Shown piece by piece: positions 9,001-62,547 of a stretch of DNA of 64,000 bases. A program made the translations under genes and the position numbers. Every line of letters starts with the position of its first letter. Positions within the stretch are counted from its first letter, which is position 1. The stretch comes from Antedon mediterranea. Lineage: Eukaryota > Animalia > Echinodermata. Where the stretch lies: NCBI RefSeq assembly GCF_964355755.1, contig NC_092678.1:16473881-16537880 (forward strand), given 5' to 3'. The notes below the pieces were generated by a model that was not told where the DNA came from, did no database searches, and was given only the letters and a program-made list of their open reading frames with translations.

Positions 9001-10826
9001 CAAGGTGTTCAGACACAACAATCACAACATTCCATGCCTGATCATTATTTCTATATTCAGATATTCATGACAAACGCACTACAGTTTACATTGTAAAGTT
9101 GTTTTTTGTTTAGCCACCTATATCCCCAAAAGACTCGTTCAGAAGCTTTATCAAGCGGAAAGCTTATTATCTACGGCTGACATTTTTTGGTATTTTGTAA
9201 ACTCGACTAATTGATAAGTCCAAGCTGCTGGACCAAAACAACGTCGGGGAAAAGAGAGTACAGTATATGAGTGATCACGGTTGAACGATTTTGGCTGACT
9301 TGACGCGAATCAACACAGTGAAGTGTACTGAGCAATGCATGTCCAACACACGCGAACATAATGTATTGCAATTCATTGACTATTAGTTTAAATAAACACT
9401 GTTTTTTATTTAATAAAAATGTAATATCATATTTGATTGAATTTTACAGTGTTGATATACAAAATATATTACTAAAAACCGTATTTTTAAAGTTCATACA
9501 ATTACTTACTGAGGGCAGAATTTATTTACTTCGTTCGTGGCTAAAAACGATTCGTTTCGGCAATGTTTTGGACTCTATTTTGAAAACTAGAAGTCAAATT
9601 TTCCTAATTCTTTTCTTTATTTTATTATTGATACAAAATATCAACTGACAATGCATGCATGCATCGTTATCTCTAGAATGCTGCTGATCAATGTTGAAGA
9701 AACTTAAAGACCCTTTATTTGCATACTTTCAGTAAGTTGCTTCAACATTTATCCGCAGCATTCTGCTACAGTCATCCATCATCTTTGTGTTTCTTGTTAG
9801 GTCACAAGCTACATTTTATGTACAGATAAATCCTATATATATATGGGCATATGGCGTTAAATGTTTGTTCGTCTTATACACAGTTAAAATGTGATAAGTC
9901 TAGGCAGGTCGGGTAGATAATTCTCTTTTAAAACAAGGAATCACCTAGTTTCATGTTTCAAAATGTATAATAAAAAAAAAATCTATTTTAAATTTAAAAT
10001 TTATTTTAATTCTCACAGTATCATTATAGTCGATATCTTTCTTACATTACATTCAAGTTATACTTCTATGAACAAAAATAATTATCGTAATTTCTATAAT
10101 TTTAATTAAAATATGAAAAAAATAACGTAAAAAGCACTAATTTACTTATAATACCGAATTGGGAGAAAATCATTGTTCGTCGGTATCTGGCGTTACGCCA
10201 GTTACCGACGAACAAAGTTCTCTAAAGTACAGTACTGCATTTTAGTGGATGTTTAACAAAGAATAATTAATCTTGTGAACAAATTGTCTCTATTTAACTT
10301 TATTATATCCTGGACATAATGTAATGGAAGTTACCAACTGTCGGCGATACAGTGTAGCGATTTAATGGAAATCAGGCTTCATGACGTGCCATTATTTTTA
10401 CTCAATATGCGTACATGTGGTAGATTGTATAATGCTTTAGGAAAAAATATGTAATACCATTATCTAGTTACCGATATATTTGATTAATTTACCGTCACCC
10501 GTGTGTGAACGAATAACAAGAACCACAGGGATAATAGAAATGTTAATGTGTAAATACATTTTGATTATTAAAAATGTTTAGTAATGTTAAAAAACTTAAT
10601 TCCGAAAACATTTTTTGTTAAATAATAACGAAGTAATTCATATTGAAATCGTAAAATACACAGTAGCCTACTTTGAAGGGCATAAAAGTTTTTTTCTCAA
10701 TGTAGAAGCAGTTGGTGGGAGATACATTTACATCATTGGTAAATACTAAAATAATATTAATAACGTACCTTTACTTAAATGTAGAAAGGTGGAAAGAAAG
10801 AAACAGATGAATTTCCAACAGGCCAT
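1..10826 (-). CDS. Paralogue A (3'-partial): secreted YWTD beta-propeller / C-type lectin family protein, exons 1-5
   Basis: Hand-spliced exons 10769-10826 (MACWKFICFFLSTFLHLSK-G, signal-peptide-like), 4977-5228, 2668-2830, 1732-1856, <1-150. All introns are GT-AG with matching phases (1,1,2,1). Motifs LYWSD, LYWTE, LYWTD, MYWSD and LYWTD are LDLR class B repeats. Collinear with copies B and C. Confidence 0.88.
495..1003. mobile_element. MITE with ~55-bp TIRs (AGGGAGGTTTCGCAA...TTGCGAAACCTCCCT) and 3-bp AAT target duplication; PIF/Harbinger-related superfamily likely
   Basis: The inverted ends are visible. The empty site gcaaagtcgcTAATgtcagg occurs in paralogues B (~25610) and C (~60111). 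Confidence 0.85.
3023..3646. mobile_element. Non-autonomous DNA element with short TIRs (AGCCCCATTCCCT / AGGGAAGGGGTCT) in a TTAA site; Kolobok-like
   Basis: Flanked by ATAA and TTAA. Copy C has the empty site aaacaTTAAgttatttgc at ~62736. Confidence 0.7.
6440..7040 (-). pseudogene. Disrupted Harbinger (HARBI1-like) transposase
   Basis: Recognisable catalytic motifs (GAxDGKH, RARRxIENAxG) interrupted by frameshifts, deletions and stops. Confidence 0.8.
7648..7830. repeat. Short tandem duplication (~76-bp unit plus partial)
   Basis: agcatactgtaagttgtaatacttaaaacatattttatatatgacacagta occurs twice, followed by a partial third copy. Confidence 0.7.
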
Positions 10827-15235: not shown

Positions 15236-16776
15236 TTAGCAGCAGTCTTTTTTCATTTTCAAAACTCCATTATACTTCAGGCCACTGTCATCATCTGTTG
15301 AAAAGATAGAAATGTGTTAAATGAGCACAGTAGCATAAAACCTAATCATCATTATCACAAAAGTATATTATTGCCAGTTAATTAGTTGATTTCGTATGAC
15401 CAAAAACTGGTTATTTCGTTCTATTCAATGATCAGCCCATTTTAAACATTTACGATTGTGGCACTTAAAAAAATACACTGTGGTGTAATTATTTCAGTTT
15501 TCAAACACTAAAGCAAAGACAGGTAGCTCAAGTTTGACCAATCACAAGCGACAGTTCAGATGAGGCGTAGCTAAGTGATTGGTCAAATTACTCGCATTGG
15601 ACGTACATGACAGTGAGACCTTAGTGGGAGATAAATAATGATATAAACTCACACAGCCAGTCGTTTTCACTAGTTCCAGCCGTCTTGAAGTCCGGCAAAC
15701 TTTTTGTCAAAGAGTCCCAGGCGCCTTTACTGATAAAAACCCACGTTGCACCATGATCTTTACTGCGCATGTAACTGCGCATGTCCATGTGAATGCCATA
15801 GATGAGTCCTGTGAGCTGGTCAGATCCAATGACATTGTGTAGGTTCATTGGTAGAGCTATTGAAGAATATTTACATTTTTATACATATTAAAATAATAAT
15901 AGTGTAGGGATATATTTTTCATTTTAACATAAGAAAAATATTAATATAGGCCTATGCAATGTTCTGTTTATGTGCCTTTTTTTTAAATCGAAAAAAGTGA
16001 AAAAAAAAAGAAATTCATTGTTGTGTGGTCGCTATAAGCATTCAAGGAAAGCTGTAATGACAAAAGAAATGTAGGCACTACGCCTAACTATTCATTTTCT
16101 CCGAAAATCTCCGGGAGACAATGTCAGTGTTAGCCCTATTACTTATCGATTTATCAAGTTGGAGATTCCTCTTGCTGTCCATATCGATGTGTATGATAAC
16201 CCGTGGAAGTAAGTATGGAAGGTTTTGATATATCAGCCAGCCTCAATTTGTGCTATTATATGAGGGACATTACGTAAACAATCTTCATTGTTTTACCTTT
16301 CCAGCGTCCATCTGGTGGATTAGCTTGTACATAGCAGGACGGAACAAGCTTGTCTGATAGACGTCCAACTGAAGGGTTACAAGCAAAAATGACGTCATTA
16401 TCCGGATCGTCCAACTTCTTAGTTATGACAAAACCCCGGTCATAATAATCTGTCAAAATGATACAAACAAATCGATGAATTGTATTAAGTGAAAAATATC
16501 TTAAGTGTTGATTCTTCGACAAGTTTCTAAAAGTGAGACAGATAAAACCATGTTAAGTAGAAACGAGTCGTGCTCGGGGATATTCGTTTAGACTAATTTA
16601 GATATGTTTCAACAGTACTGAGACATGTATTGTAGATTGAGAAGTATTCAATACTTATATATATATAAACAAATCAGGCAAAGAACATTAATTCCAAACC
16701 GCCCGGTGATATACTGAAATTTAATTAATTAATTTGAAACGATAAAGATGAGGAAATCTGTGAGAATGAGAAAACA

Positions 16777-16840
<64 letters not shown>

Positions 16841-19800
16841 GGGGTAGTGTTGCTCGAAAGCTCTGCTAACTTTTCTGGCTGTTTACTTTATCGTTTTGAT
16901 TTAGCTTTTTGCTTTTTATTTTTGTATCTCCATTTAGATCCAGCCACTGTTACCCACAGCATTGTCATTTTTTCAGTAATTTGCCCTTGGATTTATATAT
17001 ATATTTATAAACCAATCAGGCAAAGAACATTAATTCTAAACCGCCCGGTGTTCCGCTGTACCACGCCGAGAATGTTAAAGAGTCGCTATCCAATCGAGTT
17101 TGAACAATATACCATGAAAGCCCCAGTGGTCTAATGGTTAGGACATCTGCATATAAAGCAGGCAGTCCGAGTTCGAGTCTCGGTTGGGGCGACTTTTTCT
17201 CATTCTCACAGATTTCCTCATCTTTATTGTTTCAAATTAATTAATTAAATTTCAGTATATCACCGGGTTTTTTATAATTAATGTTCTTTGCCTGATTTGT
17301 TTATACTGTATTATATTACCGGTATATATTATGTTTAAGCTCTTAGAGTTGTTCTAATGATGCGACGGAACTCCTTGTGCAATATTAGCTATACTATATA
17401 GAATTCTTTTTTACCAAACTTACCTGGAACTGGGCATTTACTAGCATCACTGACACACACAGTATGTTTTCCGTTTTCACACTTATGAGCACCAGCCACG
17501 CAACCATCGCACTGGCTAGATCCCCCACCATAATGGCAGACGCCTGTCTGAGATTCGGTCCATTTGCTGTACCTCATCACAGCTTCTTTTGCATATCTTA
17601 GTACTGAAGTTTCTGAAGAAAAAAAAGTACTATAACAATGGACAACCTTACTTATTTTGCTAAAACCCTCTTTCTAATAGACAATGTGTGCGTTTCTTTA
17701 TTACAAAATTACAGAGTTCATTTAGTGGTTTTCCATGGCGATCAAGATAGTACAGTATGTAGTCAGTATCGAAAAACCAAGTGCCCGATCACAACGCAAC
17801 AATTTGTATTTAGGTCAAAGTTTAAAACATTATTGCATTTATCCGATAATTATCTGATTTGAATGAGATAATTATCGGTTAATTTTTCTGCAGCGGAATC
17901 AGTTAAACCCCGTTTCCACATGAACTTTATCGGTAAATTATCGGTTAATGTTTGGCTGCACAAAAACGGTCTTGTGCAGTACGTAAGAACCATGTAATTA
18001 GTGTACCGTATTCAAAATCTAACATATGATACTCGCAGATAGCTGGTAGGATAGCGGTGCAGTCCATTATGTCCCAGTCACCAAGATCAGTACTGACATC
18101 TCTTGTATCGTAGACATCTACAAAAGCCGCAGCTCCGCAGTCTTCAGTCACACTTGTTCCGGGTCTGTTTGGTAGCCATTTTGTAAAAGACGCCGATGAC
18201 CCGTTTGTCCACTTGAAAGTATCAGTACCCTAGAACATATACATTGTTATAACTGAAGTCATAAGGAGTAAAATAAATGACATGTCATGTGATTAATCAT
18301 AGATTTGTCCTGTCAAAGTTAAGTTACGTCCCACTTCTCGTGTAGTTAGCACGGCCAGTTCATTACGGTAATTACGAATGACATGGGGTCTGATAGCCAT
18401 ACTCACCCCAACGTTTTTTAGACCAATCCAGTATTTGTATGGCGAGAGTGCTGGAACGAGGTCGCGAAGAAATTGCTGTTCAAACGTATCTTCAATCATG
18501 ACTAATTGCGCACTGTCTGCTTCACAGGCCGCCTTTGCTGCATCCCAAGTTTCTAGCGTGTCGTTGAACACTTTGTAACACGTTTCTTTGTAAGGTGTGT
18601 AACCAGACCGACATAAATCTAGAAGTACAGTGTAAGAGTTATAGAGTAATTATAATCAGCCGATTCATGTTTGTAACAATCATATACACACTCTTTTTAA
18701 CAACGTAACATATCGATCACATGTAAACTTGTATCAACGAAAGTTGGTTTGGTCGAGGAAGTCATCGTTATGATACACATGTGATCCTGTATCTACAACT
18801 TCTCTATGTTACAGGACAAATTGTCGATACCTTACCGATATTACAGTCATAATAAACATAATTCTGATTTGATAAGAATGGCTTAATGTTGTGAAAGAAA
18901 CATTTTTTAGGCGCCTTATGTTTAAAAACAGCCGTTAATTACGGCACATGCAATCCTCACAACCTGGAGAGATGCGCCTAATATTCATTTTAACATGGTT
19001 AGAATATTATGCAGACAATGTATAACTCTTTCAGATTAAACTGACACACTATCGTACACTTACCACCACCACCAACATCTGGTCTGTCCGAATACATAAA
19101 TTGAAAAGATTTTGTGCAAGAAAGAACTTTAGCGCTATTAGCAGTCGAGAACCACAACAAATCAGCCACGCCAACAAAGCGACGAGTGCCCGGAGCAGTT
19201 TTTCCGTTTTTGTCGATTCCTAGACGTACACGGAAAGTTGGTTTTGCGGCAATCTGAATGGTTCCAAGCTGTGAAATACATGCGAAATATTACTACGTCT
19301 ATCTTTGATTTCATTTAGAAAACCCCTCTCGACTTATATCATAATTCATTAAAACAGAGAAAGTAAAACACACCACCCAGCGAAATAAAGGCTGTAATAA
19401 TTGTAAACCTTTTAAATAATAACAAATCTGAAGAGTGAAAAAATCGATCCCAGCCAAGATCGAATCTGTTATCCTGATGCAGACAGACCTTACACTTCAT
19501 TAATAAGTATATGAATGTTTCTGAACATGTTACTGAAGGTACTACACTGGCCATCCACCTGTTTCCTAATCTTTCAAAATGTATCAGCGCTGTAGGTAAA
19601 CACCTAACATACTTAAAAGTACTCTTCCAAACCTTATTAACCAAGCTGACCGTGGGCCCTACACATAATTGAATCTGGTTTATTGTATAGAATAACTTAC
19701 ATTAAATCGTTTAAATCATTTAGAAAACCCCTGTCGACTTATATCACAAGTCAATAAAACAGAGAAGGTTACATTTCATTAATAGGTACGTTAATGTATT

Positions 19801-22800
19801 CTGAACTTGTTACACTGAAGGTACTACACTGGCCATCCACCCGTTTCCTAATCTTTTAAAATGTATCAGCGCTGTAGGTAAACACCTAACATACTTAAAA
19901 GTACCCTTCCAGCTGACCGTGGGCCCTAAACATAATTAAAGCTGGTTGATTGTAGAATAACTTACATTAAATCGAACAGGAGATGGTCCAGGCATGCTTG
20001 GGTTTACAGCTGGTGACTGGAACAGCTCTGTGTATTCTGATTCAAGTTTAATATATTGCACATTTTTCGACTTCATTATTGTGAAAGTTACATCTACTGC
20101 TTTTCCTGTTGAATCGTCATCGTGCCAAATACTAATCAGTATTATTACATCATCACTGAAAATAACAACCAATAAATACTATTATGGAAATCAAATTAAA
20201 GTGGTACCACAATCACTATATCCCAATACTTATAGGACTTCAAGAGTGAACATATCTGCCGTAGGCCTACTTAGGGAAAAGGGCTTATCTACAGAAAGTT
20301 ACTTTTGAGTAAAACGTGTTTTTGTTTTTCATTATAAAAGTTTCATGTAATATTTTATTTTCAAATGAATATATTTCAAAAGTATATTATTTAAAAATAT
20401 CTGACATCATTCGATTATTACTGTTTTATTTTGGGGGTCAATGTGCAGATAAAGCCTTTTTTTCAAATTATTTATACTTAAAAATGGCGGAAAATACTTC
20501 GAAAACATGGCACTTTTGTAGTTATTTTTTTTAGATTTTTGTTCAAAATTTACCAAAACATTTTGTAACTTTCGTTGAAATAAATTATAAATGCAATTTA
20601 GATTAGGTAATTTGTAAAAAGGCTTTTCTCTTGAAAGTATTAATCTGCCTCATTATAATTTTATATTCATCATACTGTTATCTGATTTTGTCAAAACGTC
20701 AAATGCCACGACTCAAATATCAATTGCCGCAACCAAAATGTCAAACCCAAAAATGTCAAACCCTTATGTAAAAATGGTTACATTTAAAAATCGTCAAACA
20801 TGAACAATGATTGCCAACGATCAAATACGAAGAATGCAATTATTTGCCTATTAAAAAATACACATGACAATTTCTGATAGTGTTCGCTAGTGTTAACTAG
20901 TTGAACCATTCTAATTTATCTTATTTCATTCATACAATTCTTCAATAATAAGAACAATTACTCTTACATTGCTTGTATCTGATACCAAACTTACCCTTTA
21001 TAAAAGGAATTATTTTCGTATGTTATCTTGAACGTTATCTTAGGCTTCGGAACTTCATTAATCAGCGTATAAACTGGTACTTCTCCAACCCAGATGTGAG
21101 CTTCGTCGCCAATCTGCATTCCAAGTCCTAACCAGTGCTCTGATCCATTGACCACCGCGTCTGTATCGTCTAGGACAACTTCAATTTCTAACGCCAATAT
21201 GTTATTGGAAGTATCTGGGTCGTTCACTTCAATAAATCCGTCGAACTGTGTCACCGACCAGTCTTTAAGGATGTCGAAATCATCATCATTAGCAATGTAC
21301 TGCGTCTGAGGAGCGTAGTAGCAGAACTCTGTCGAATACGTACAGAATAAGGAGTCACTGACATACGAAACGGACACTTTGTTGATACTCCACTGCTCAC
21401 TTGTCTTGTTAGTCGTGACGTTGTATGGTAGTGTGACTTCAATTGCAGGATCAGCGATACCTTTTGGAAACTCAACAATGAGGTTCATATGCACCTTTTG
21501 ACCAACGTTAACATAAACATTACCATCTGCAGACTGCTCAGTGATGTTCATCACGAAATGCGGTAGTTTACTGAAAACTGCGTTTGACACTCCTTCTGCG
21601 GTGACTAAGCCATTAAATATGTCAGTTAATTCAGCAGTTATAGTTAGACGTAAAATAGCTCCAGGTTTTACATCGGCTACAAAGAAATTTTTGTATGAAC
21701 AATAAATACAGATTTGTTATTGTATATATCTAAAATAATGCAAATTAGGAAGACATTAAAACTATAATGTTCACTTCAAAGACGATTGGTGTTATATTTC
21801 TTGTCAAATACATGCCTTAAACTACGAAAGCATAAGTTTTGTTAGCACTTGCTGAAGTAATTACGATTTGACACAATGAAGCAATGTAGGCATATACGGT
21901 TACCGGAGGGATCTATAGGAACTGTTATAATGTTAGTTGGGGTCTGCACATTAATTCAAAAAAATACTGTTACAAAAGACTATATATATATATATATACA
22001 AATCCAAAGGCAAATTACTGAAAAAATGATAATGCTGTGGGTATCAGTGGCTGGATTTCAATGGAGATACAAAAAAATATATCAATTTGATAATAAATGT
22101 GATCTGATAGGCTAACCACATCAGCTTTATAGGAACAAGGATATAGTAATCATTTGGGTTTAACAACTTATAGTGTAAATTAATATTTTGGCTAAACAAA
22201 TACCAAAAAAAAGATTCGATTAAAATACCATTAACAGTGGAATTGATGGTCCCTTCAAATTGAATGTCAGATGAAAATAAACTGTTATTACTAAAAAACA
22301 AAGTAATTTCTGATGCAGAGACCAGGGTGACCGTTAAGTTGCTCTGAAAAATACAATGCTTTCCGTAAGTACATCTGATAGCAAATCTGGCTTTAAAAAA
22401 AACAGTTGATTGGTCAAATGAAGAAGAAACCCAGCAATAGGTAAATATCTTAAGCGGTAATGTAAATAGAATCTCCGAGATTAAAGTCGGCAAAGTCGAA
22501 TCATTTTTTTATATTATAGAGAAAAGACCTATATCTATTGTTTGACATACCATTACATTAAGTTATATTTAATGATTTCACTGCTAAAATCACACGTCAC
22601 ACTATTTATTATGACCACAACATTACCCCGCTAACCCGTTATTTTGAAAAAAATACAAATGAAAATCATACCGTCATGGTTGAGTCGGTTATTCCGTTTC
22701 CTGTTAAAGTCCATATAAAATGATCTGCCGACAGGTCGAACTGAAAAAGATGTTTACTATAAATACCTCCCATTATATCGGTGCTGTATCTAGATTTGCC

Positions 22801-25800
22801 CAGTATCATAGAAATAGTTGGTAATACGACATCACATGTGTTTCACATGTTTCCCCTGGTCATATCATAATCAAATATTCCTCTGATACTTGGAAACATA
22901 TCTGGAAGATACAGCACTGAGAATCGGGTAATAATTACACTCAACCAGTATTTAGTATACTATAGACATTATGTTCCGCGTATACGTATAGGCTTATGTA
23001 TCCATGTCGACATACGACACATGAATTCGTAGCTTGTTTCATTTGGCCAAATTCATACAGACATGTGATCCGTTGTTCTCAGTAGGCTTACGGTGGATTT
23101 TATCGTCTGGCTAACATTTTAGTTCTTTGTTGCTTTAATTAACACTTTTTCTCTTGTTAATAGTTTATGTTTATGATAACTCATAACCTACCAGTGTCAC
23201 TGATGAAATATAATATAGAAATGTGTTTTTAACAATTAAATCTTAAAGGTATAGTTAACGTGTAACATTCAATCCATACAAAATGCACAGAAAATCTGGA
23301 TCACGCGCTGCTAACGTCACACTACACGCACACATTGTGACGTACGCGAATTTCAACCATTATATGCGAATTTCACCCATTATATGCGACTACGGAGTTT
23401 TCCCATTCTACTTATTCCATAACTCATTATACCATTCATATGTATTCTCAACTGAGAATCATCGACGCACAGCTCAACAAAGGTGCAAGTTTTGGAACAC
23501 TAATAATCGTTATTTCCGATGCTGTAAGTGCATGCAAGTATTGCATGAATACAGTACCACAAAAAAAACAACAAAATGGAAAACATTACGTCCAAATAAT
23601 CACCTTATAGCCGCCGACTTAAATTAAGAATAACCCCCAAAAAAATTAATATATATATGCCTAGACATTTGATGAAATATAAATTATTGGCATGGTCAGA
23701 AACACTGTGTATACTATGTATGTATCTTTTTAGTTAATTACCTCCATATTTTCTGCTGTAAGGTTGACGTTAAAGCCTGTTTCTGACGTCAATCCAGCAC
23801 TCTTCACCAAGAGGTGCGTCTTCACTTCATCTCCAATTCCGTAATATGTTTTCGAATCTTCTACGATTGCGCTCGCATCCATGCGAGCTGAAAGTATACG
23901 TTGCCGGTATTAATATACAATTAGATAATAACAATAAAAATAAGAATTATTATACAAATAATTTATTTTTATTTATTTAAAAATTGACTGCACTATTTAA
24001 CGAGGCATAATTGACCAATACAATTGCAGGTGTATTATAAATTTATCTATACGATGGTCTGCTATCAGATTATTTACTTATTTGTAATCTATTACATTTT
24101 ATATCGTTTTTTAATAGTTGAATGTGTCATCAAAAGGATATTGATTAATTTTGTTTGCATAATTATTTCGTTGTGTCCAACCTAATAGTGTGTGTGCAAT
24201 AATGTGTAAATACAGTTGTTTGAATCTTAATCATATTGTTTTAAACAGTTATTCATTATTAATTTAAAGCTAGCTTGGTTCATATTAGAAAAATACATCC
24301 TCCCGTTGTCTTTCATTTTTTTGCAGAATCCATTACTACAGAACGGGGAAGATCCGCAAATGTATTCACAATCGCCTCTACTTTGGGTTTATCATTGAAG
24401 CAAAACGAAACAATCTGCGCGAAATGCATGTCGGTATTTAAAGCTAGCCGCTTAAATTATTATAATCGACTTCTCTTTCAGATTTTTACCCGTTTAAAGA
24501 AAACAAAAATGATCGAAATATAGGCCCATTTAAGGTTCATTTTTACAAGAAAAAATGTAGTCTGTAATCCTAATATAGACCATACACAATATGTAGGGAA
24601 TGCATCTGTTATCAAAATGTACTCGATGGAACTCTTAATCGCCAATAATATTATAATAAGGTAAACATATCTTATTTCTATCAGGTCATAGTTTAATATG
24701 TTACTCTCCAATTCTCCACACTATGCTTTTAAAATATTTCGTCAATTTAAAATTATTTCGGGAACTGAGTGGACATCGCGTCCATTTTCGTCTTACATTT
24801 TTTTGTTCTAAAGAGTGTTTTTACAAGCACATTTGACTTAATTGTGAGTATAGGTACAAAAATGTAAATTAAAAATGGGCTCGTTGACCACAACGTGTGC
24901 CATTTGTATCTTGACCTACAATTTGTGTTAGCAATTTCATTTTAATATTAAAATTGAATATTTACTTGTTAAAATATATAATCCTCTTGGAAACATAAGT
25001 CGACTATCGCTACTTTCCTTTGATGATACTCCAGTCGTTCTATCACCTCGATATATAACCCCGGCGTCGTCTGTCCAGTACAGATAGCTTCCATAGATAT
25101 CAATCCGAAACGGGTGATTCAGCCCAGTTATAATCGTTCTTCTGTTAGTTCCGTCGAGGTGAGCTTCCTCAATTAACCTACTGCTGTAATCACACCAATA
25201 CATCTTTCCATCTTGAGAATAATGAAAAACGAAAATGAGAGAGAGAGAGAGACGTATATACGATTGAATACTGTACTTGAACACGCCTATTAAGTTTTAA
25301 CAAAACGATAATTTGAAGCACGTGACCTTTTAGTAGGCGCGCAAAAATGGGTTATCATGCATTTAGTTCAAATGAAAAAAAGTTCTCAAGAGACTGAATC
25401 ACAATGTACAACGTAAAAAAAATGTTATAACTCATTGAGAAAAGGAAAGTGTACTCAACTGTAAGCATAGCTTTGATTATAGGGTCTAACCAACTGTCAT
25501 ACTTTGTGCCTAACGAGTCGAAATATCATTCTGCGCATGCTCATGTGTTTCTGAAAGTGCGCAGGATTGTCCTTTTACTCGAAAGACGCGTGGCGCATCG
25601 TGTAAACGCAAAGTCGCTAATGTCAGGAAGTAAAATAAGACGCCGACTCTACTAACATGCAGTACATTGAATTCCAAAGTGATAACCCCACGTACGTACA
25701 TTTCACATGATTTTGTAGTATCATGCACGAGCAATACAATGCTGAGCCAGTACAAGTCACGGATGCGCACACATACACGTAATTGTATTGCCATATGATT

Positions 25801-28800
25801 ATTAATGCCTTGAAATTTATGAGTACCCAATTTTATTTAATTGTGATTCATGCTGGTGAAGATATGATTACAAACGTGATTTCGTTAAATCGTGTGTAGA
25901 CCGCGTAATTTTTGATTGCGCACCGTGAAAACATAACCACATCCTTTCCTGGCCATAAGGAATATACTGTGAAAAATTGACATAGCTAGATGAAAGTGAT
26001 ATCAAGACAAAGCCATATACACGTTAGTGTTTACCGACCGACCGACATAGTTAACTGTAGATTCGAGTTGCACGCGACTAAAAAAGAAACTTCATCTCAA
26101 AAAATTTATGTTAAAATGTATTTAGAAGGGATTAGTTGGTACCAATAATTTCACTTTTAAAGAATATGTGTAACATCCATAGCACTTATCAACCACCGCC
26201 ATGCCTAATTATTATAGGTACGTGGATGACAATATTTCCTTTAATTTTGCTGTTGTACCTTTTTATATCTGTATTTTATACTATTTTTTTATATACCTGT
26301 AGTTTTATATCATTTTTACACTACATACTGTATATTTTTATATAACTTTTAAAACTTATTCTAAGATGTGTTTATGCTGTTTTAAGCATTGAGGAAGAAT
26401 TTCAAATTATACATTTTTTGACAATAAAGTTATCTTGTATCTTGTATGAGAATAGACATAGCTTAAATATCAGCCATAATACTTAAAGCATAATATGTTT
26501 TTTTTTTCATTAAGCTCTGCAGGCTCAAAAGTTGGTACAAATTTATTTTCTAGGTCTGACTATAGTCTACACAGTGACTCATGTTGCAGGTATAAATAAG
26601 TAACGTAGCCCGAAATGATCATATTGTTTATAGTAAGCGACTTTATGTACAGGCATCAATAATCAGAATTAGAATACTTACTAATAGTCTACATATATTA
26701 CATACGGTAGTACTATTATATAACTTACATGCATTCATGGTCATACAGTAACTTACCGGGAACAGCTAAAACAAGTCCGGTTGCGTCTGGTGTACTTGTT
26801 ACTAACACGGTCCTTGTACTCAAGTCATTTAACTTCGCTCGCTCTATCCTATCTTTTTCTGTATCAGTCCAGTACAGGTATCTAAGTATAAGTATAATCT
26901 ATGTTACTACATTAACGTTCTGTTACAAGTAGTTCACATCCCTTCCACGGATAAAAAATATATTGAAACTTACGAAATTACTGAAGCAGATAAGTGATTT
27001 ACGAATATGTGAAAAGAAATGTTAATAAATCTTTATTACTTCCTTTATTGAGTGATATTAATGTAATATTATTACGTTTTTGCTTACAAATCAAAAAGTA
27101 AAAATTAATGGATGGAATGTGAAGTTCATAATTGATCTTCCTCCAACGTGAAAAGAGGTTTACTGTGTAAAGAAGGTGACATTACCCGTTAGATATAGCA
27201 AACGTTACTAATAAGAATTGTTCTGTACGTTCAATCCAGATGTGTTACCTTAATGCTGCCAGTCTTTCACTAATTTAAATTATGTTACAAGTGGCAGGAG
27301 CGGATGTAGGATTTTGATAAAGAGGGGGCCCCAGGAAAAATATTTTTCTAGACGCCCGGAGATAGCATCTGAGGCGTTTTGGCCAGTCGATTCTTGTCAT
27401 ATAATTATCTGAATATAGTGGGTTTTATAGACCATATTTAATATAGGCCTTTTTTGGCGCCAATAGCCTAAAGCCTGTTTTCCCGTCGACGAAGCGTTAC
27501 GACTAGGACTTGCATTAAATTTTCAAATCGTTAAAGTTGAGAATATATTAACCATAACGATGATCGAGCCGGACCGCAAGTTTTTGCGCGATCGTTAATT
27601 TTTCTTGGTTTTTTCGATGTTGCTGTACACATGGACGTGAAGTTTAGCAAAGCCAATGCCATTCACGCGCAGCCAGCCGGGCCCGTGTGAAAATTGAAAA
27701 TGTTGACGGGTTTTGATGCTTCAACCCAGCCGGCGCATAAGACATGATTTCGCTGATATATTTATCTCGGCTTTACACTAAGACAAACCTTAAATAAAAT
27801 TATTTTAATTATATTAAAACTTAGTTTTACACTTGTTATTTTGAAATATCAGACTTTAAAAGTGTACAAAAAACATCGTCGCCTTGTAAAAAAGCAAGAA
27901 TTGTCAGCGCGTACGTATTTTTTCACAAACTATGATAACGTAATTTATGAACTAGGCCTATTTGATTGGTCAGTCAGTTCAATTTAAAAAGAAAATTGAA
28001 GGTTTTAACGATTTTTAATGTTGATTTCCTGTAAAATCGTTGATAAAATCGTATGTAAATGGGTGCATAATATATATATATAAATGGGTGCATGATATAT
28101 ATATATATATATATCTCTTCCAAGCTACCTTCTTTGTTTTCCACTCTTATTCAGACTCCACCCTGGCTCCCTTTGTTATATTTCTTTTATTCCTGTCCAC
28201 CCAGGCAGCACTTGCCAGCTTTATACTATGACGTTATCCAAATTCCTTCACTTGCACTGATGAAGGGCAAGTGTTGCCCGAAAGCTCTGCTAACTTTTCT
28301 GGCTGTTTACTTTATCGTTTTGATTTAGCTTTTCGCTTTTTATTTTTGTATCTCCATTGAGATCCAGCCACTGATACCCACAGCATTGTCATTTTATATA
28401 TATATATATATAAATCCAAAGGCAAATTACTGAAAAAAATTACAATGCTGTGGGTATCAGTGGCTGGATCTCAATGGAGATACAAAAATAAAAAGCTAAA
28501 TCAAAACGATAAAGTAAACAGCCAGAAAAGTTAGCAGAGCTTTCGGGGAAAAATAGCCCTTCATCAGTGCAAGTGTAGGAATTTGGATAACGTCAGAGTA
28601 TAAAGCTGGCAAGTGCTGCCTGGGTGGACAGGAATAAAAGAAATATAACAAAGGAAGCCAGGGTGGAGTTTGAATAAGAGTGGAAAACAAAGAAGGTAGC
28701 TTGGTAGAGATATAAACAATTTTGGAATGAGACTAAAAAACAGCTTAAATGGTAGTTAATATTGAAACTTAAATTTTGGTAGTCAATGGAATAATTTTAC

Positions 28801-29663
28801 CGATCTGGGAGTATGTTCCTAATGTTAAGTCCAAAAGGTTTTGTAGTTTTAAGTAGTAATTCCCAGTGGTTTTCTTTGTCTTTGCGAGTTTTGTCGCTCC
28901 ATTTGACATCGTGGTCTATTGCAATAACTCTGAAATTTGCAATCGAGTGACCAGCTGAATTAAAATGTTCGGCTACAGGTTGATCAAGCTTTAATGTTTT
29001 GATAGCTGATCTATGTTGTGTCATTCTCATACGGAGAGTTTTTTTTTGTTTCTCCGACGTACTGTTTGCCACAAATATTACAGTATATGAGATAAATGAC
29101 GTTTTTGGTTAGACAATTAATTGATTGTCTTATCCGAAAAATGCGGCCAGTTTGTTCGCTCTCAAATTTTTCAGTAGAATCAACCAATGAACAAGATTTG
29201 CCGCAAAGGTGACTGCCCAAATTTTGGCTGTCATGAGAGTTAATTTCACTCTTAAATTTGGATCTGACTAATATATCACGAAGGTTGGGAGGTCTACGAA
29301 ATGCAATAATGGGTGGTTCCGGAAAAACAGTCCTGAGACGTTCTGTGGACTGTAGAATGGGCATATGTTTCTCAATAATAGCCCGTAATGGAGGCAACCT
29401 AGGGTGGTAGGTTGTGAGCAATGGCACTCTGGTCGATTTTTTTGGCTGACGTGGTTTGTACGTCAGTGTTTGACATCGAGGAATATCTTTTGCTTTCTTT
29501 ATAGCAGTTTCGATGTATTCCTTCTTGTAATTTCTGTTCCGGAGATGTCCGGTTAGTTCTTCGGTACGATTCTGAAAATCTAAACCTGAAGAACAGATAC
29601 GTCTGATACGTAATGCTTGACTGTACGGTATGTTTTTAGTACAGTGTCGGGGGTGACAACTGC

Positions 29664-29696
<33 letters not shown>

Positions 29697-32600
29697 TACA
29701 AAGGGGGGGGGGGAGGGTAAGTATAATCTGTAATACAGTGTAATATATGTATAACATGTGACACTTGCATAAGCCTACCCTAACTTTAACCATAGCATAG
29801 TACAGACGACATGTGAAACATGTGGCAATATATTTATAGAATTGGCCTATACTGGACAGATTTTAGAAACTACTAAAACTGAGATATTATGAATGAAATT
29901 CAATCCATTGAATGTTTTAAACGTAAAGGCAATCATTCTTTTTTAAACGTTCTTATTATCAAATTTTAACGAATTTAAATGTATGGTTTAGATGCATTAA
30001 TAAGAATATACAGTTCATCTCCTTTGGATGAGTAAAAAAAATAGATAGATGTACGTTGAGAGAGACATACCCGTTAGCTGTATCTATCTCAATTGCATAT
30101 GGATTTCCTAATCCTGTGTCAAACAGAACTGTTCTGCTTGTTCCATCCAGATTGATAACTTCAATTCGGTCTTCGCCATAATCTGTCCAATAAAGTTTTT
30201 TTCCATCTCCATCAACGGCTAAATCAAGCACATCTTAAATAATGATGACAATTAAACAATTACTGCAATCCCAACCTATGAAATTTACTTTATATGCTAA
30301 AGACTAAAACTGTTTTAACCCATTTCAAATGATGCTCAACCGACTACTAGGGTTATGTATTATATTATACTAAACTTTAGCACGACGACGAAAACGTTTA
30401 CTTTGACGGTGACGTCAAACTACTCATTTGCATAACAGTGTAGTTCATAATTCAGCGAACAGTTGCGTTTTAACGTACTTGTTTGTAAATTTGCTTTGAA
30501 CGTAACGCATACCAAGCTAGCTAGGCATTTGAACTTGCATAATTAGCTGAGAAATAGCATAGCGATGAACAAATTTTATTTTTTGACTTAATTATAAACA
30601 TGACTTTAAATTTACCATGTCGTTTTTTTAATTATTCTGCAGAAAAGTAATGATCTTCCATGTTTCGATACCTTTGGTTAACGTTTTTCACGTCGGTATT
30701 TTTCAGAAATAAGGTTATCGACGCAATTAACTATATTTTTTCTTAATGCTTGCTCACGTAGACAGAAAAAAGTATGTTTATATAATCATATATAAATGAA
30801 TAAAAATACTTTAAGATGAGGGCGTATCAATTTGATCTCTGGTGCGCGTGCGTACAACTGAGGACTAGTGTTGTTCCGCCGTACCACGCCGAGAATGTTA
30901 AATAGTTGCTATCCAATCGAGTTCGAACAATACCATGAAAGCCCCAGTGGTCTAATGGTTAGGACATCTGCATATCAAGCAGGCGGTCCGAGTTCGAGTC
31001 TCAGTTGGGGCGACTTTTTCTTTATTCTCACAAATTTCCTCATCTTTATCGTTTCAAATTAATTAATTAAATTTCAGTATATCACCGGGTGGTTTAGAAT
31101 TAATGTTCTTGGCCTGATTTGTTTATATATATAAAAGTATCTCTTCGGAGATCCCGCCTCGTGAATAAAAATACTGTAAGATGAGGGCGTATCAATTTGA
31201 TCTCTGTTGCGCGTGCGTACAACTGAGGACTAGTGCTATTCCGCAGTACCGCGCCGAGAATGTTAAAGAGTCGCTATCCAATCGAGTTCGAACAATACCA
31301 TGAAAGCCCCAGTGGTCTAATGGTTAGGACATCTGCATATCAACCAGGCGGTCCGAGTTCGAGTCTCGGTTGGGGCTTTTTCTCATTCTCACAGATTTCC
31401 TCATCTTTATCGTTTCAAATTAATTAATTAAATTTCAGTATATCACCGGGCGGTTTCGAATTAATATTCATTGCCTAATGTGTTTATATATATAAAAAGT
31501 ATCTCTTATATATAATTTAAGGCGTATCTTGAAAAAGCAAGGCAGTATAATAATTGATCCGTACGATATTATTTTTAAATGAAAAGGTGGACATTTTAAT
31601 GAGGGGAACATTATAATTAGAAGTTAGTGCGTTCGGTAGGTCTAAACAAAATTTCTTTTATAATTATTGTAGTTCAACAAAGGCCGATACTATTTTAGAT
31701 TATAAATTTCAAGAATCTCTTTTGCAGATTTATGTACTAACAAGTTATAGTGGGATTCCTTAGATATTAGTGAGTGACATTGCAAGAGATAGCTTGGGTT
31801 TTACAAGAACATTGATCCTATTGCAGTAAAGTAGTAATTAGATTTCGTGGCAATTTATTTAAAAATAATTAGATAATGTCTTTATTTTTAGATATATTGA
31901 TTGTATTCCATGTTGTTTTTAATAGTTACTTTTACTGTTTATGTTTATGATATTCATAATAATCTTGTTTCTGTAGGTTTTATTATTAATTATGTTCGGT
32001 GTTTTGATTTTGTTTTTGATTTCTAGTATTTATTGATTATATTATACCCTTTATTATCCCAGGTTTTTTAGTTCTTGTATGCAGAGGAGGAAACGACAAA
32101 AGAAAGATTTTTTTTGCGAAAGCGGGAAATAAAAGATTTTCCTATACAAATTATAAATATGCTGTAAAATGGTTTAATTTCTGCTACGCATTTGGACGAG
32201 GCGCTATCTTTCCTAACCTTTACATCTGTTATCAACGCTTACAGAAATCTTTAGATTCAGAAATCCTAAATCCGATCGATCCCGTTATCTACAATTTCTG
32301 AAAAATCAGACGAATTGATAAATGGTGCTTATACTATAACATCCTTTGCAAAAAGAGGTTAAACGTAAATGTCCTAACGACATTATGTTACTTTAGTAGC
32401 CTCAAACATTTAATTATGATTATTAATTAGGCCTAAACAACAGCGTTTAGTTCAACAACGTTTGGTTCAACCTTGAAATAGTTCTGAAGAGTTGGTCTAT
32501 TTGGACTACATGATGATGATGATGATGATACACTTTCTACCAAATAATTAGGCATATTCTTAAAAAGTAAATTAACATAACAAAAATACATTTCTTTTGC

Positions 32601-35392
32601 ATACACTGTTAGAATTAAAAGTTAATGAAATTCAAACAAATGCTCTAAAAATACATGATGCTTATTTTTCCTAATAAAATATGTAAAAATGAATAGAATA
32701 TTACTAGCAGTTGATCCCAAAGACACAAACACTTCATGTTGGCTAGTGACAAGTGAAAACCGTTCAATGGTGTCCTTGGTTACATCAGACCAATACAGTG
32801 TTGATCTGCTAATGTCATAATCGAGAGAGATAGGTTGGGTTAATCCGACATTAATAACTGCTTCAAAAATTAAACTTGCGTTGTCACTGGAACTAATGTT
32901 GGTCATATATATTCCAGGAGGCCCCAAGGAATTCACCACAAACATAACATCACCTGTATTATTAAAATATATAAAAAAAATGTTTACTTGAATATAGCAC
33001 CTAAATAAACAATAAGAATAATAATATACATTTACACACTAATTATTATTCTATGAAACATTAATTATTGGGATAAAATTCTTTGCTGAATCATAAATAA
33101 ATGCATGCGCAAATCAAATACAATACCTATGCACAAAAACAAAAGCGATTTTGCAAAGTTCCTAAGGACTAAATCTACTTCAAGAGGCGACTTAAATGTA
33201 CCTAAAGTAACATTGGGATGATGTTTCCCTCGTTCTTGTTGTTTTAAACGAGTCTTTCAATTCCTTTAAATTTAAATTTTAAAAATATATTGTATAGTAT
33301 TTTTTTTATTGAATGTTATATTGTATAGAGTTAAGTATAATAGATGTTTATATTATTTAATTGCCTCCGGATACTAGTTGGCCTGCGGATTCAGCTAGAA
33401 GGGTTACCCTCTCTAACTAAAGTGAAAATATATAAATAAAAGGAAAAACATCAAGGCCGATCTCTAGGAAATTATTAAAAGCATTCACTCCACAGTTATA
33501 TTATCAGATTTCTTGTAACCATTGTTCAGTCCCACTATCACAATATTAAAACAAAAAGCCACTCCGAGAGTGCATATCTCCGGCTACTGTAAAAATCTCC
33601 TACATAAGATTATGTAAATACATAATATAAAAATAACGCTTAAAAAAGAAGGACGTTTCGACTCTATCGTGGTCATTATCAAGTCCAATGAATAAAATTT
33701 AAAACAACAACTAATTAAATAGCACAAGCCAAGGGTCAAAGTTTAAATAACAAAAGACCTATTGTCTAACATCCTGTTAAATGAAAAGCTTAGCTTTTAC
33801 AGAGTCACTTTGTTTATTCAGACTAGGTTTTAATTGTCTGAAATACAACATTTCTTAGATAAGGCAGTCAAATTTGTTTTTGCATTTTCTAAGTATACTA
33901 AAACATGAATTAATTTTGCTGTCATAACGTGATTGTTAATCCAAGTGTTTTAGTATACTTAGAAAATGCAAAAACAAATTCATTCATTGGACTTGATAAT
34001 GAACACATGATGGAGTCGAAACGTCGTTCTTTTCTGAGCGTTATTTTTATATTATGTATTTACAATAAACGTACCCTCATTCATAAGATTATGAGAATGG
34101 GAATATATGTGTGTGTGTCTTAATGCTGGGCGTGATTTAGTCTAATTTCACTACAAGCATGTGTATGCGAATTTGGTGTAATAGTTATGTAACAAGCCTT
34201 TCAACTAGTATCAGTTGACTAACAATAGAACAGCATCGCCAAAAACAAACGGGTGAATTTTAAAAGAAATAAGTTTTTTTTAAATTACTCGTATAAAAAA
34301 CACAAATTATGTTTAAAGTTAAAATCAAAAATTATAACTCTTGCCTCTTGTACAAAAAAGAAGTTTTTTGGACAAGTAGTTCGTGAGAAAATGCAATTTC
34401 AGTTTACTTGTAACTTTAAAACTGCTTTTGACAAATTCTGTCCTATCTTTTAACACTAGCAGGTCTGAAAAGTATACTGAAAAGTGGTCCAGAATTGGGA
34501 CCGTGGTCCCAAAATTTAATGGAATGGTCCTTGACCACATATCTATCTGTATTTCCATATTGGTAAAGATCTTGTAATTACTTTTTTAGTAATACAGGTA
34601 ACCTCCTTGGCGGAGGTAAAAAATAACTCTAGTTACGCCTTAAGTGTCTTTCACACTTGAAAATTACCTCTCAATATTTCGTTTTCACGACGAGCCTTGT
34701 GGTAGATGTAACTGCTTCAGGAAAAAATATTTAATATCATAATAGTTACCGATATATTTGTTTAATTAACCGTCATCAGTGTGTGAACGAATAACAAGAA
34801 CAAGGACATTTTAAGTTCAATGTTGTAAATAAATTGTGATTATTAAAAATGTTTAATAATGTTATAATATTCAATTCCGGAAAACATTGTTTAAAATAAT
34901 AACAGTAACGAAGTAATTCATATTAAATTCGTACAATACACAGTAACCTACTTTGAAGAGCATAAACATCAAGGTTATTTAGACCAAACGTCTTTGAATT
35001 AACTTTTTAAAATTCTTAAAAAGTGTAGGTCCTATTATAGCAAAATATAAGGGAATAATGAAAAAAACGAGGTAATACGGAATACAAAGATTTAAAAATG
35101 TTATTGATGAAGTTTATCAAATTGTGATGACATTAAGAATTAACAATAATGTGATAAATGATTGTGATTTTTTGTGATGACATGAAAGATAATAATGAAT
35201 GTGAATAAAAGTGGTGTTTACGCCACAAAAGAGAACAAAAAATCACATCACATTTCTTCCTAAGGAAGCAGTTAGTCGGAGATACCCTTTACATTTACAG
35301 CATTGGTAAATACTAAAATATATTATTAACATACCTTTATTTAAGTGTAGAAGTACAGAAAGAAAAAAAGAGACGAATTTCAAACAGGCCAT
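15236..35392 (-). CDS. Paralogue B (complete, 17 exons, 1095 aa): signal peptide + YWTD propeller + beta-rich stalk + C-type lectin domain + Cys-rich module + Asp-box tail ending CC
   Basis: join(35335-35392, 32705-32953, 30071-30233, 26757-26881, 24966-25211, 23742-23887, 22672-22740, 22229-22343, 20995-21676, 19966-20155, 19064-19268, 18407-18618, 18007-18229, 17424-17612, 16297-16449, 15653-15856, 15236-15294) = 3288 nt. Every intron is GT-AG and every phase is compatible. Starts [20 protein letters not shown] and ends ...[14 protein letters not shown] hallmarks: C-x-x-GY...CYKV...[10 protein letters not shown]...LVMI...EQQFL...YWIGL...FKWTNG...FTKW...EDC...W...DC...AICE. Confidence 0.9.
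16656..17305. mobile_element. Composite insertion: inverted fragment of the tRNA-bearing unit + (TA)n + Penelope pLTR fragment + tRNA-bearing unit
   Basis: 16668-16773 is the reverse complement of the unit's 3' part. (TA)n spans 16779-16837. 16838-16995 matches the pLTR at 28262-28395. The tRNA-like sequence is at 17120-17191. Absent from intron 14 of C. Confidence 0.75.
27295..28070. mobile_element. Nested DNA-transposon remnants in intron 3 of B
   Basis: The insertion starts CAGGAGCGGATGTAGG at the point where A and C continue uninterrupted. Intron 3 is ~0.8 kb in A/C and ~3.2 kb in B. No coding capacity was recognised. Confidence 0.5.
28113..29662 (-). mobile_element. 5'-truncated Penelope-like retroelement (Neptune-type, C-terminal GIY-YIG endonuclease) with inverted pseudo-LTR
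   Basis: Minus-strand [28 protein letters not shown]...[17 protein letters not shown]...C-C...[19 protein letters not shown], then a frameshift in an A-run, then [10 protein letters not shown]...PVAEHFN...GLN. pLTR 28113-28395 is inverted relative to 28411-28710. The element is bounded by (TA)n tracts. Confidence 0.92.
28254..28290 (+). ncRNA. Minimal type I hammerhead ribozyme motif in the Penelope pLTR
   Basis: gca-CTGATGA-a-gggcaa-gtg-ttgccc-GAAA-gc-TC-tgc: conserved core boxes, 6-bp stem II, palindromic AGCT stem III and gca/tgc stem I. An inverted copy lies on - at ~28534-28570. Confidence 0.75.
30800..31515 (+). repeat. Two tandem ~365-bp units each carrying a tRNA-like gene (30941-31012, 31306-31376), inserted at a (TA)n site
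   Basis: The period is 365 bp. A has an uninterrupted tatgttatatatatatataatttaaggcg at ~3820-3850. Confidence 0.85.
33600..34075 (-). mobile_element. 3' remnant of a second Penelope-like family with inverted terminal repeat, nested in another insertion (33550-34620)
   Basis: Minus strand ~33776-33892 reads [37 protein letters not shown] (GIY-YIG C-terminal LN motif). 33614-33692 is inverted relative to 33980-34062 and contains a degenerate CTTGATAA...GAAACGTC hammerhead-like core. Confidence 0.7.
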
Positions 35393-47045: not shown

Positions 47046-47378
47046 ATATCAAGCAGGCGGTCCGAGTTCGAGTCTCGGTTGGGGCGACTTTTTCTCATTC
47101 TCACAGATTTCCTCATCTTTATCGTTTCAAATTAAATAATTAAATTTCAGTATATCACCGGGCGGTTTAGAATTAATGTTCTTTGCCTGATTTGTTTATA
47201 TATATAAAAGTATCTCTTCGGAGATCCCGCCTCCTGAATAAAAATACTGTAAGATGAGGGTGTATCAATTTGATCTCTGGTGCGCGTGCGTACAACTGAG
47301 GACTAGTGCTTTTCCGCCGTACCACGCCGAGAATGTTAAAGAGTCGCTATCCAATCGAGTTCGAACAATACCATGAAA

Positions 47379-47450
47379 GCCCCAGTGGTCTAATGGTTAG
47401 GACATCTGCATATCAAGCAGGCGGTCCGAGTTCGAGTCTCGGTTGGGGCG
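47379..47450 (+). tRNA. tRNA-like gene/pseudogene with anticodon ATC (Asp-like), best-preserved copy of the repeated unit
   Basis: Acceptor GCCCCAG/TTGGGGC + G73, D-arm GTCT/GGAC, anticodon stem TCTGC/GCAGG with loop ATATCAA, T-arm CCGAG-TTCGAGT-CTCGG. A box TGGTCTAATGG, B box GTTCGAGTC, and a T-run terminator 3 nt downstream. Confidence 0.6.
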
Positions 47451-48062: not shown

Positions 48063-48110
<48 letters not shown>

Positions 48111-62100: not shown

Positions 62101-62547
62101 CTGGACAGATTGTACGATACGGTGCAGAGAATCGGGTGTGAAGTATAGAAGCTTCTTAAGTTGAGATGTTATTAATGAAATTCATTTCGTTGAATGTTTT
62201 AAACGTAAAGGCAATTCTTTTTTTAAACATTCTTATTATTAAATTTGAATGAACTTAAATGTATGGTTTAGATGCATTAATAATATACAGAATACAAGTT
62301 CACCTGAGATGTGATCACACAGTTCATTTCCTTTGGATGAGTGGAAAAAAATAGATAGATGTACGTTAAGAGAGAGTGACATACCCGTTAGCTGTATCTA
62401 TCTCAATTGCATGTGGTTTTTCTAATCCTGTGTCAAACAGAATTGTTCTGTTTGTTCCATCCAGATTGATTACTTCAATTCGGCCTTCTTTTTTCTCTGT
62501 CCAATAAAGTTTTTTTCCAACTTCATCAACGGCTAAACCACGCACAC
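50188..62547 (-). CDS. Paralogue C (5'-partial, exons 3-17) of the same YWTD/C-type lectin gene
   Basis: Exons 62385-62547, 61453-61577, 59488-59733, 58269-58417, 57597-57665, 56839-56953, 55711-56392, 54711-54900, 54215-54419, 53582-53793, 53183-53405, 52557-52790 (or -52757), 51617-51769, 50962-51165, 50188-50246. Exon sizes and phases match B except exons 6 and 14 (in-frame indels). The last bases of the window match the intron just below exon 2 of A, so exon 2 should lie immediately beyond 64000. Confidence 0.9.
50405..50796. mobile_element. PIF/Harbinger-type MITE, TIR AGGCCCATTTACACTAGG..., TTA target duplication
   Basis: Inverted ends of ~35 bp with TTA on both sides. Absent from intron 16 of B (~15450). 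Confidence 0.85.
51850..52345 (+). mobile_element. 3' end of an L2/CR1-group LINE
   Basis: Encodes APRLWNALPSSIR...ILKTHLF, the typical L2/CR1 ORF2 end. The 3' tail is gcgccttgagcact...gtgcgctataaaa + (ATT)n. Absent from B. Confidence 0.7.
56975..57265 (+). mobile_element. tRNA-derived SINE with duplicated 26-bp head and (AAAT)n tail
   Basis: A-box-like TGGCTTGGTGG, B box GGTTCAAGTCC and tail aaataaataaataaataaat. The empty site is in B at ~22365. Confidence 0.8.
60764..61407. repeat. Minisatellite, 23-bp unit AGTCTACATAATACGGTAGTACT x28
   Basis: Exact 23-bp period with one variant base near 61098. A has a single unit at 1664-1686. Confidence 0.97.

Follow-up and report, generated by a model that had tools for sequence, protein, structure and literature searches.

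A tandem gene family of the feather star Antedon mediterranea predicted to encode secreted proteins with a variable YWTD propeller on a constant stalk

A 64,000-nt stretch of the genome of the feather star Antedon mediterranea (RefSeq assembly GCF_964355755.1, contig NC_092678.1, positions 16,473,881 to 16,537,880 of the forward strand; hereafter the window) contains three collinear minus-strand copies of one gene, designated A, B and C, which were identified by self-comparison. Copy B encodes a polypeptide of 1095 amino acids in which a YWTD β-propeller is followed by a stalk of three domains (D1 to D3), a C-type lectin-like domain (CTLD), a Cys module and a tail with an Asp-box-like motif. 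The feature is of the 'variable head on constant stalk' kind and is real at the DNA level. Beyond the architecture described in a first-pass annotation of this DNA, it comprises a tandem array, an old bilaterian core with a swappable head and a hypervariable ligand face of the propeller.

Identity between copies B and C was 75% in the propeller and 93–97% in D2–D3 and the CTLD. In LRP5/6 the β2-β3 and β4-β1 loops form the ligand side, and propeller positions were classed by the YWTD register as belonging to these top loops, to bottom loops or to the rest. Among copies A, B and C and the paralog P0009 (RefSeq XP_071964169.1, 1086 aa, encoded on another chromosome-scale contig of the same species with the same domain order as copy B), 44 of 62 top positions were variable, against 11 of 50 bottom and 27 of 130 other positions (Fisher 2e-7 and 3e-11), and pairwise differences between the Antedon paralogs amounted to 54% on the top face and 14% on the bottom. 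The same mask gave a reversed pattern in five vertebrate LRP5/6 first propellers (top 7%, bottom 37%). The unshifted register mask had the highest score of 43 shifted masks, and the bias recurred in five more distant Antedon propellers (top 72% vs bottom 41%). Eight of the nine positions equivalent to ligand-pocket residues of LRP5 varied among the paralogs and mostly differed from LRP5. Two of the nine, W255 and M282, are pocket residues reported for the cleft of LRP6 propeller 1 that binds the sclerostin NxI peptide (PMC3843708).

Codon comparisons pointed in the same direction. When the non-synonymous rate (dN) of the top loops was set against the synonymous rate (dS) of the whole propeller, ratios of 3.2 (B–C, P 1.5e-4), 2.2 (A–B, P 0.002) and 2.3 (A–C, P 0.06) were obtained, with 0.3–0.5 elsewhere. 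The region after the propeller is under purifying selection, with a dN/dS of 0.53 between B and C (P 0.0014, 805 codons). Between the same two copies, propeller exons 3–5 were 85–89% alike and their upstream intron flanks 92–94%. In contigs from four sequencing runs, 19 of 30 non-synonymous differences in exon 5 fell within 22 top codons of 81 (40 of 138 rows); these contigs contain the same paralogs and are therefore not independent evidence.

The gene model of copy B runs from 35392 to 15236 on the minus strand, with 17 exons (Table 1), GT-AG borders at all 16 introns and a single stop, so that the 1095-aa frame joining propeller, stalk, CTLD, Cys module and tail, as annotated earlier, was rebuilt independently at the DNA level. 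A reading by eye had given 16 exons and 1072 aa; an intron search for in-frame symmetric exons added the sole candidate in intron 6, the 69-nt exon 7, which is kept in copy C and brings the total to exactly 1095 aa. A longer exon in the 22.8–22.9 kb stretch was ruled out by stops, the frame being open only in the 69-nt exon. The N-terminus was the most hydrophobic 19-residue window of the polypeptide (Kyte-Doolittle 1.38), in agreement with the signal-like peptide noticed before, and this together with homologous G/D junctions in copy A, P0130 and P0026 (G/N in P0011) suggests a signal peptide. The best 11-residue hydropathy window in the last 40 residues was -0.05, indicating that copy B has no C-terminal transmembrane or GPI-type segment and upholding the earlier statement that a hydrophobic C-terminal segment is absent. 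Copy B contains 13 N-glycosylation sequons.

Judged by its repeats and its phylogeny, the propeller is an ordinary six-blade type from a clade expanded in crinoids. Repeats lie about 43 aa apart, the leading and closing strands could be aligned to LRP5 E1, and Pfam Ldl_recept_b (PF00058) was above cut-off in exons 3, 4 and 5. The five YWTD-like motifs counted earlier were found as YW[TSC]D at residues 73, 117, 160, 203 and 243, and the leading blade, which had been described as atypical, proved to be ordinary, aligning with the LLFAN strand of LRP5 propeller 1. Searches with phmmer gave 3.3e-37 to LRP6 propeller 1 (the best single-propeller structural relatives) and 7e-26 to nidogen. In a propeller tree (37 rows, midpoint root, isoform P0012 omitted, seven ids without a full domain) the stalk-fused propeller fell in a clade of 10 Antedon sequences (support 99/97) separate from the LRP5/6 propellers; the clade members P0026, P0130 and P0032 carry EGF-like modules and fall outside the stalk-fused group. 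RefSeq names of close sister propellers are 'LRP6-like', 'LRP5-like' and 'cueball-like'. Antedon also has small solo-propeller proteins (P0011, P0012/P0130, P0026, P0032, P0010), with a propeller, EGF and short Cys tail or with a propeller and an unannotated 240-aa domain (P0011), and these too are most variable on the top face.

The absence of EGF modules after the propeller, as stated in the first-pass annotation, was confirmed. No EGF or LDL-A Pfam family was found in the 15 exon translations searched (exons 2–16, E<=0.5), P0009 had no Ldl_recept_a match either, an EGF regular expression that detects the module in the sister proteins P0130 and P0026 had no match in copy B, and residues 206–501 contain no Cys, as the description of a Cys-poor region had implied. 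The LDLR/LRP proteins (LRP5/6, LRP4, LDLR) and nidogen share the six-bladed YWTD propeller, five motifs and LLFAN-type leading strand with copy B, which, unlike LDLR/LRP, lacks EGF, LDL-A, a transmembrane segment and a cytoplasmic tail, so that the earlier warning against an 'LRP-like' label was justified; RefSeq does label close sister propellers in this way. A further difference from LRP5/6 is that the ligand face, hypervariable in the Antedon copies, is the most conserved part of their propellers. The missing EGF is the lesser surprise, because ROS1/Sevenless already combines YWTD propellers with following β-sandwich domains and no EGF (PMC13100127). The β-sandwiches of ROS1/Sevenless are FNIII domains in a membrane-spanning kinase, whereas copy B has one propeller, CnaA-like domains and no membrane anchor.

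The propeller-stalk fusion is very probably real, because P0009 has the same architecture at another locus; it is based on this prediction and on phase-compatible splice sites conserved in copies B and C. All 15 exons of copy C inside the window keep AG/GT ends. Copy C was matched letter for letter by the RefSeq proteins P0007 (all 263 aa), P0008 (over 223 aa) and P0002 (XP_071961041.1; C-terminal 205 aa). P0002, identical to copy C in these residues, has a different stalk and may be a chimeric model across tandem copies or a product of gene conversion. In the four sequencing runs, reads at the locus covered introns and no joint was seen at exon boundaries among those listed, a result uninformative on transcription.

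The part of the protein behind the head is an unnamed old bilaterian family of three β-sandwiches, Cys module and Asp-box tail, as far as alignments can define it. A profile of the C-terminal 192 positions, searched against 1.84 billion proteins, returned 16 proteins; ten of the matches are named (a hemichordate, a sea urchin, six molluscs, a nematode and a krill), four are unnamed short fragments, and P0141, a Sushi/CTLD protein, was discarded as a false match. Relatives of sufficient length, which include Ptychodera XP_070559027.1, Lytechinus XP_063953936.1, Lottia V4B301 and proteins of Babylonia, Liolophura, Elysia and Physella, aligned over three β-rich domains, an 8-Cys module and the tail, and 14 columns were invariant across 9 sequences. 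The core is not represented by any Pfam or NCBIfam family, and none of the 240 pattern matches from a metagenome scan was a relative. Head and CTLD are both absent from the molluscan and hemichordate proteins, and the sea-urchin member has a CTLD and no head. In the Antedon paralog P0004 (XP_071941053.1) an F5/8 domain takes the place of the propeller, and from the first stalk residue onwards the protein is 72% identical to P0009 over 840 columns. Residues 1–230 of P0004 include an endonuclease/phosphatase fragment, which probably stems from a retroelement exon that was erroneously attached to this F5/8-headed protein. Outside deuterostomes and molluscs, tail-domain fragments were seen in krill (P0145) and nematode (P0137); P0145 starts with a motif that resembles the last part of an F5/8 domain, which hints at a larger family with the tail placed after other modules.

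Propeller, CTLD and Cys module are each bounded by phase-1 introns. Since the propeller is flanked in this way, its clade includes EGF-bearing members and the head is swapped in P0004, the propeller was likely added to an old invertebrate core by exon shuffling. In the simplest history, as we infer it, a CTLD was inserted into an old secreted core in echinoderms and crinoid heads were acquired by shuffling, the EGF being left behind.

The CTLD retains its fold, conserved disulfides and WIGL motif, with Lectin_C at 2.9e-16 in P0009 and matches to CTLD structures in the PDB. RPG aligns with the QPD/EPN motif and WDI with WND, likewise in P0004 and Anneissia P0005, so that canonical sugar binding is unlikely and unsupported, and a sugar-binding lectin as the second ligand site is not supported. 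Two of the eight family-invariant Cys residues of the Cys module have been lost together in copies B and C, P0002, P0006 and P0009, as would be the case for residues joined in a disulfide. The corresponding exon of copy C begins with a 33-bp duplication (52735–52800) that produces a repeated acidic spacer, of which P0009 has three units, and the length of the CTLD-Cys linker therefore varies. The motif SKDHGATW of the copy B tail fits the Asp-box consensus SxDxGxTW of BNR propellers (sialidases, GH74 and Vps10, for example) and was aligned to GH74 Asp-boxes at E 0.032; BNR was below cut-off in two of 15 relatives. The tail has 138 aa, one clear Asp-box, Atlas TM-scores of 0.40–0.47 and no internal repeat detected by hhalign, and is probably too short to form a closed propeller in one chain.

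The three stalk domains are predicted to be pilin/CnaA-like β-sandwiches, the match having been obtained for D1 of an AlphaFold model of the paralog P0003 that does not include a propeller. In this model, pLDDT values were mostly 60–88 in the stalk strands, 70–85 in the tail and below 50 in the CTLD; an earlier four-sequence alignment, with pLDDT 34, was not used, and an alignment mixing propellers with headless relatives was excluded because stalks were misaligned onto propellers. D1 of the model matched Gram-positive pilin domains (EbpB, Z 14.8, rmsd 2.3, 128 aligned) and the CLIPPER structure 9ifr (Z 11.7, rmsd 2.7, 122 aligned). With the three-domain stalk, Foldseek ranked PrgB, Antigen I/II C123 and integrin α legs first, with low whole-chain TM-scores, and the Atlas feature score to DUF11 clusters was 0.90. 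A viral fold library gave general β-sandwich matches only, and by hhalign the three stalk domains did not resemble one another in sequence (probability <1%). No fold match to the tail was among those listed, which were filled by the stalk, the tail not having been searched alone.

The stalk thus resembles those of bacterial fibrillar adhesins and pilins (Antigen I/II C123, PrgB, EbpB, RrgB), in which a binding head likewise sits on tandem β-sandwiches of the CnaA/CLIPPER (DUF11) kind, with D1 model Z-scores of 11.7–14.8 and Foldseek E-values of 7e-14 to 2e-13. CLIPPER domains have been reported to build fibrillar-adhesin stalks; some of them do without the isopeptide bond, and matches suggesting such bonds in eukaryotes were regarded as false (10.1101/2025.04.25.650565). 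A Lys-Asn isopeptide cross-link was rejected for the Antedon stalk, no column with Lys in >=60% of at least six alignment rows having been found, which leaves a shared fold without the cross-link. The likeness may be one of fold or of descent, identity being 9–14%, without a Pfam DUF11 match and in an intron-rich animal gene. Integrin α also places a β-propeller on a leg of three β-sandwiches (stalk model vs αV, E 1.9e-12; αE, Z 10.2); its head is a seven-blade FG-GAP and not a six-blade YWTD propeller, copy B has no transmembrane segment, TM-scores were <=0.17, and no integrin match was found in Pfam or among PDB sequences. Because the propeller head is a recent crinoid addition, this likeness is probably convergent.

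On these grounds we propose that the protein is secreted and rod-shaped, carries a diversifying propeller at one end and the constant CTLD, Cys module and Asp-box tail at the other, and serves to recognize non-self, an account whose chances we regard as evenly poised. The top face of the propeller would bind targets and likely diversifies under positive selection, each copy recognizing different, probably foreign, surfaces, and the pilin/CnaA-like domains would act as a spacer. The nearly invariant CTLD, Cys module and tail would dock to a host partner or matrix or join chains. Targets may be proteins or surfaces of microbes, parasites or symbionts, which the protein could opsonize or agglutinate. 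Sea-urchin TLR genes lie in tandem arrays and have a positively selected ligand face (PMC3367398). In such tandem expansion and ligand-face selection the Antedon genes are like these and other diversified invertebrate families, namely FREPs and C1qDC lectins such as crinoid OXYL, all on scaffolds different from the YWTD propeller. Lineage-specific secreted lectins and recognition proteins have been reported from crinoids (PMC6409975). A more speculative elaboration, which we hold to be doubtful, is an antibody-like variable YWTD scaffold, with a germline repertoire of propellers whose top faces are hypervariable, on a pilin-like stalk, in which two or three chains join to complete a propeller from their short Asp-box tails, giving a multivalent, collectin-like molecule of a new build; its constant core would be an undescribed bilaterian family having domains of the bacterial-adhesin type.

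Several observations weigh against the non-self recognition account and lend weight to other explanations. The top/bottom mask was drawn after the alignment had been seen, the codon test comprised only three partial sequences, and gene conversion between copies could lower dS. Whole-propeller dN/dS was 1.04 for B–C and 0.67 for A–B, and against the few synonymous sites of the top loops themselves only B–C was significant (P 0.02; A–B 0.18, A–C 0.40). The ratio near 1 for B–C and the two non-significant tests of three are what would be seen if constraint were relaxed in redundant young duplicates whose propeller had lost its ligand and drifted; such drift, however, predicts a dN/dS of about 1 on all exposed loops, whereas bottom loops gave 0.4–0.5 and top loops 2–3, exons 3–5 diverge more between B and C than do their upstream intron flanks, and frames are intact in all three copies, which makes it very unlikely. 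At the level of the gene model, no RefSeq protein equal to copy B turned up, models on the window contig are fragmentary, those of P0002 and P0003 begin at or within the stalk, and the P0003 structure (22 sequences) had a mean pLDDT of only 59 and failed on the CTLD. A fusion that is a prediction artefact, with a propeller gene and a stalk-CTLD gene as separate neighbours, would account for these stalk-first models and for the propeller-only models P0010 and P0055, the fusion being known from gene models. Yet in copies B and C exon 5 has a conserved phase-1 donor and exon 6 a phase-1 acceptor, a search of intron 5 with the filter used revealed no other symmetric exon, P0009 joins the two parts at another locus and the F5/8 head of P0004 uses the same junction, so that an artefact is highly improbable.

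It is the evolutionary pattern that points to a foreign target, and gamete-recognition proteins show the same pattern. Reproductive proteins often evolve rapidly on one binding face, and a role on gametes or the egg coat, the propeller evolving in step with its counterpart on the opposite gamete, would suit a probably secreted, multi-domain molecule that has a non-canonical CTLD and changes rapidly on one binding face. The divergence, however, is among co-existing paralogs of one genome, in a tandem array and on other chromosomes, and is better explained by a repertoire than by a single lock-and-key pair specific to the species; we consider a gamete role decidedly improbable. Unlikely to a lesser degree is a role in adhesive or food-capturing mucus or in extracellular matrix, where variable propellers would widen the range of substrates or particles bound and the rod and tail would cross-link the material. 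The stalk is similar to domains of fibrillar adhesins and pilins, the sequons and terminal Cys residues would suit such a material, and F5/8 domains, as in the head of P0004, and CTL domains recur in echinoderm adhesives such as Sfp1 and Nectin (PMC7037938); the same paper contains, under five adhesion-related terms, no mention of YWTD or low-density receptors, and a dN/dS above 1 confined to one face suggests antagonism towards a partner that itself changes rather than unspecific adhesion. Finally, the protein could be a soluble decoy that captures Wnt inhibitors or other LRP5/6 ligands with an NxI motif, LRP6 propeller 1 being the closest single-propeller structural relative by sequence; this reading is hardly credible given the variable pocket-equivalent positions, mostly unlike LRP5, and the separate position of the clade in the tree.

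Each of the named domains is known, and YWTD propellers without EGF have the ROS1/Sevenless precedent cited above. The literature searched, outside which most subscription papers lay, yielded neither the domain combination nor the core family nor the hypervariable face of the propeller, and no paper on the YWTD propeller as a diversified recognition scaffold; six accession terms returned 0 papers. A feather-star skeletal proteome mentions two CTLD proteins that could not be tied to the core family (PMC7351957, accessible text), and the accessible text of PMC9552553 does not cover this family. YWTD propellers are known as conserved receptors of host ligands, and the face that is nearly invariant in LRP5/6 changes fastest in the Antedon protein. 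This suggests that crinoids, the sister group of all other echinoderms, have a new scaffold for diversified recognition. The core defines an unnamed, probably secreted family that occurs in hemichordates, echinoderms and molluscs and combines a stalk predicted to be pilin-like with an exchangeable head; automated annotation splits its genes or labels the pieces LRP-like or snaclec-like. Natural paralogs that share a framework and differ in their loops offer a ready test of what determines propeller specificity.

Table 1. Exons of copy B and extent of copies A and C in the window.
Feature	Position	Strand	Content	Remarks
Exon 1	35335..35392	-	Start codon and predicted signal peptide, aa 1-19, then phase-1 intron	Homologous exon in copy A, 10826-10769
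Exon 2	32705..32953	-	Propeller leading strand VMFVVN and YWSD repeat, aa 20-102	Homologue in copy A, 5228-4977
Exon 3	30071..30233	-	YWTD repeat, aa 103-156	Pfam; exon with top dN/dS vs copy C (3.98, Fisher P 0.075)
Exon 4	26757..26881	-	YWTD repeat, aa 157-198	Pfam
Exon 5	24966..25211	-	YWCD and YWTD repeats and closing strand, aa 199-280, then phase-1 intron, no EGF exon	Pfam
Exon 6	23742..23887	-	Start of stalk D1; F5/8 head of paralog P0004 at same junction	
Exon 7	22672..22740	-	Stalk D1, 69 nt	Kept in copy C (57665-57597) and P0009
Exon 8	22229..22343	-	Stalk D1	Homologous exon in copy C
Exon 9	20995..21676	-	End of D1, all of D2, start of D3, aa 391-617	
Exon 10	19966..20155	-	Stalk D3	
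Exon 11	19064..19268	-	End of stalk D3, to aa 749, phase 1	
Exon 12	18407..18618	-	CTLD, first half	Pfam Lectin_C 3.1e-8
Exon 13	18007..18229	-	CTLD, second half, non-canonical, RPG 842-844, WDI 872-874, phase 1	Lectin_C 8.9e-4, below cut-off
Exon 14	17424..17612	-	Cys module, 6 Cys, two family-invariant Cys lost as a pair, phase 1-1	
Exon 15	16297..16449	-	Tail domain, first predicted blade	
Exon 16	15653..15856	-	Tail, Asp-box-like motif SKDHGATW, aa 1040-1047	
Exon 17	15236..15294	-	C-terminus, CC then stop	
Copy A	1..10826	-	Exons 1-4 and part of 5, open frame of 249 aa	Runs off the window start
Copy C	50188..62547	-	Exons 3-17, 998 aa, no internal stop	5' end beyond 64000

Repeats and mobile-element remnants were also observed at the locus. 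Intron 3 of copy B contains two adjacent minus-strand open frames of 283 and 103 aa (28797–29862), which resemble the end of a Penelope-type reverse transcriptase and a GIY-YIG endonuclease, with no Pfam match at E<=0.01. Between copies B and C the plus strand (38309–41029) has broken pol fragments of a long terminal repeat (LTR) retrotransposon (RT_RNaseH_2 7e-25). An intronic duplication of about 220 bp (19490–19974) includes a copy of the exon-10 donor region, and directly after exon 4 of copy C lies an array of 28 copies of a 23-bp unit that are 99% alike (60757–61408). An element of about 365 bp is repeated, partly in tandem, at 17049–17316, 30797–31507, 44527–45090 and 47046–48085; its depth in the DNA runs was very high, part of it is tRNA-like according to ARAGORN (five calls with odd anticodons), and it is probably a tRNA-derived short interspersed element.

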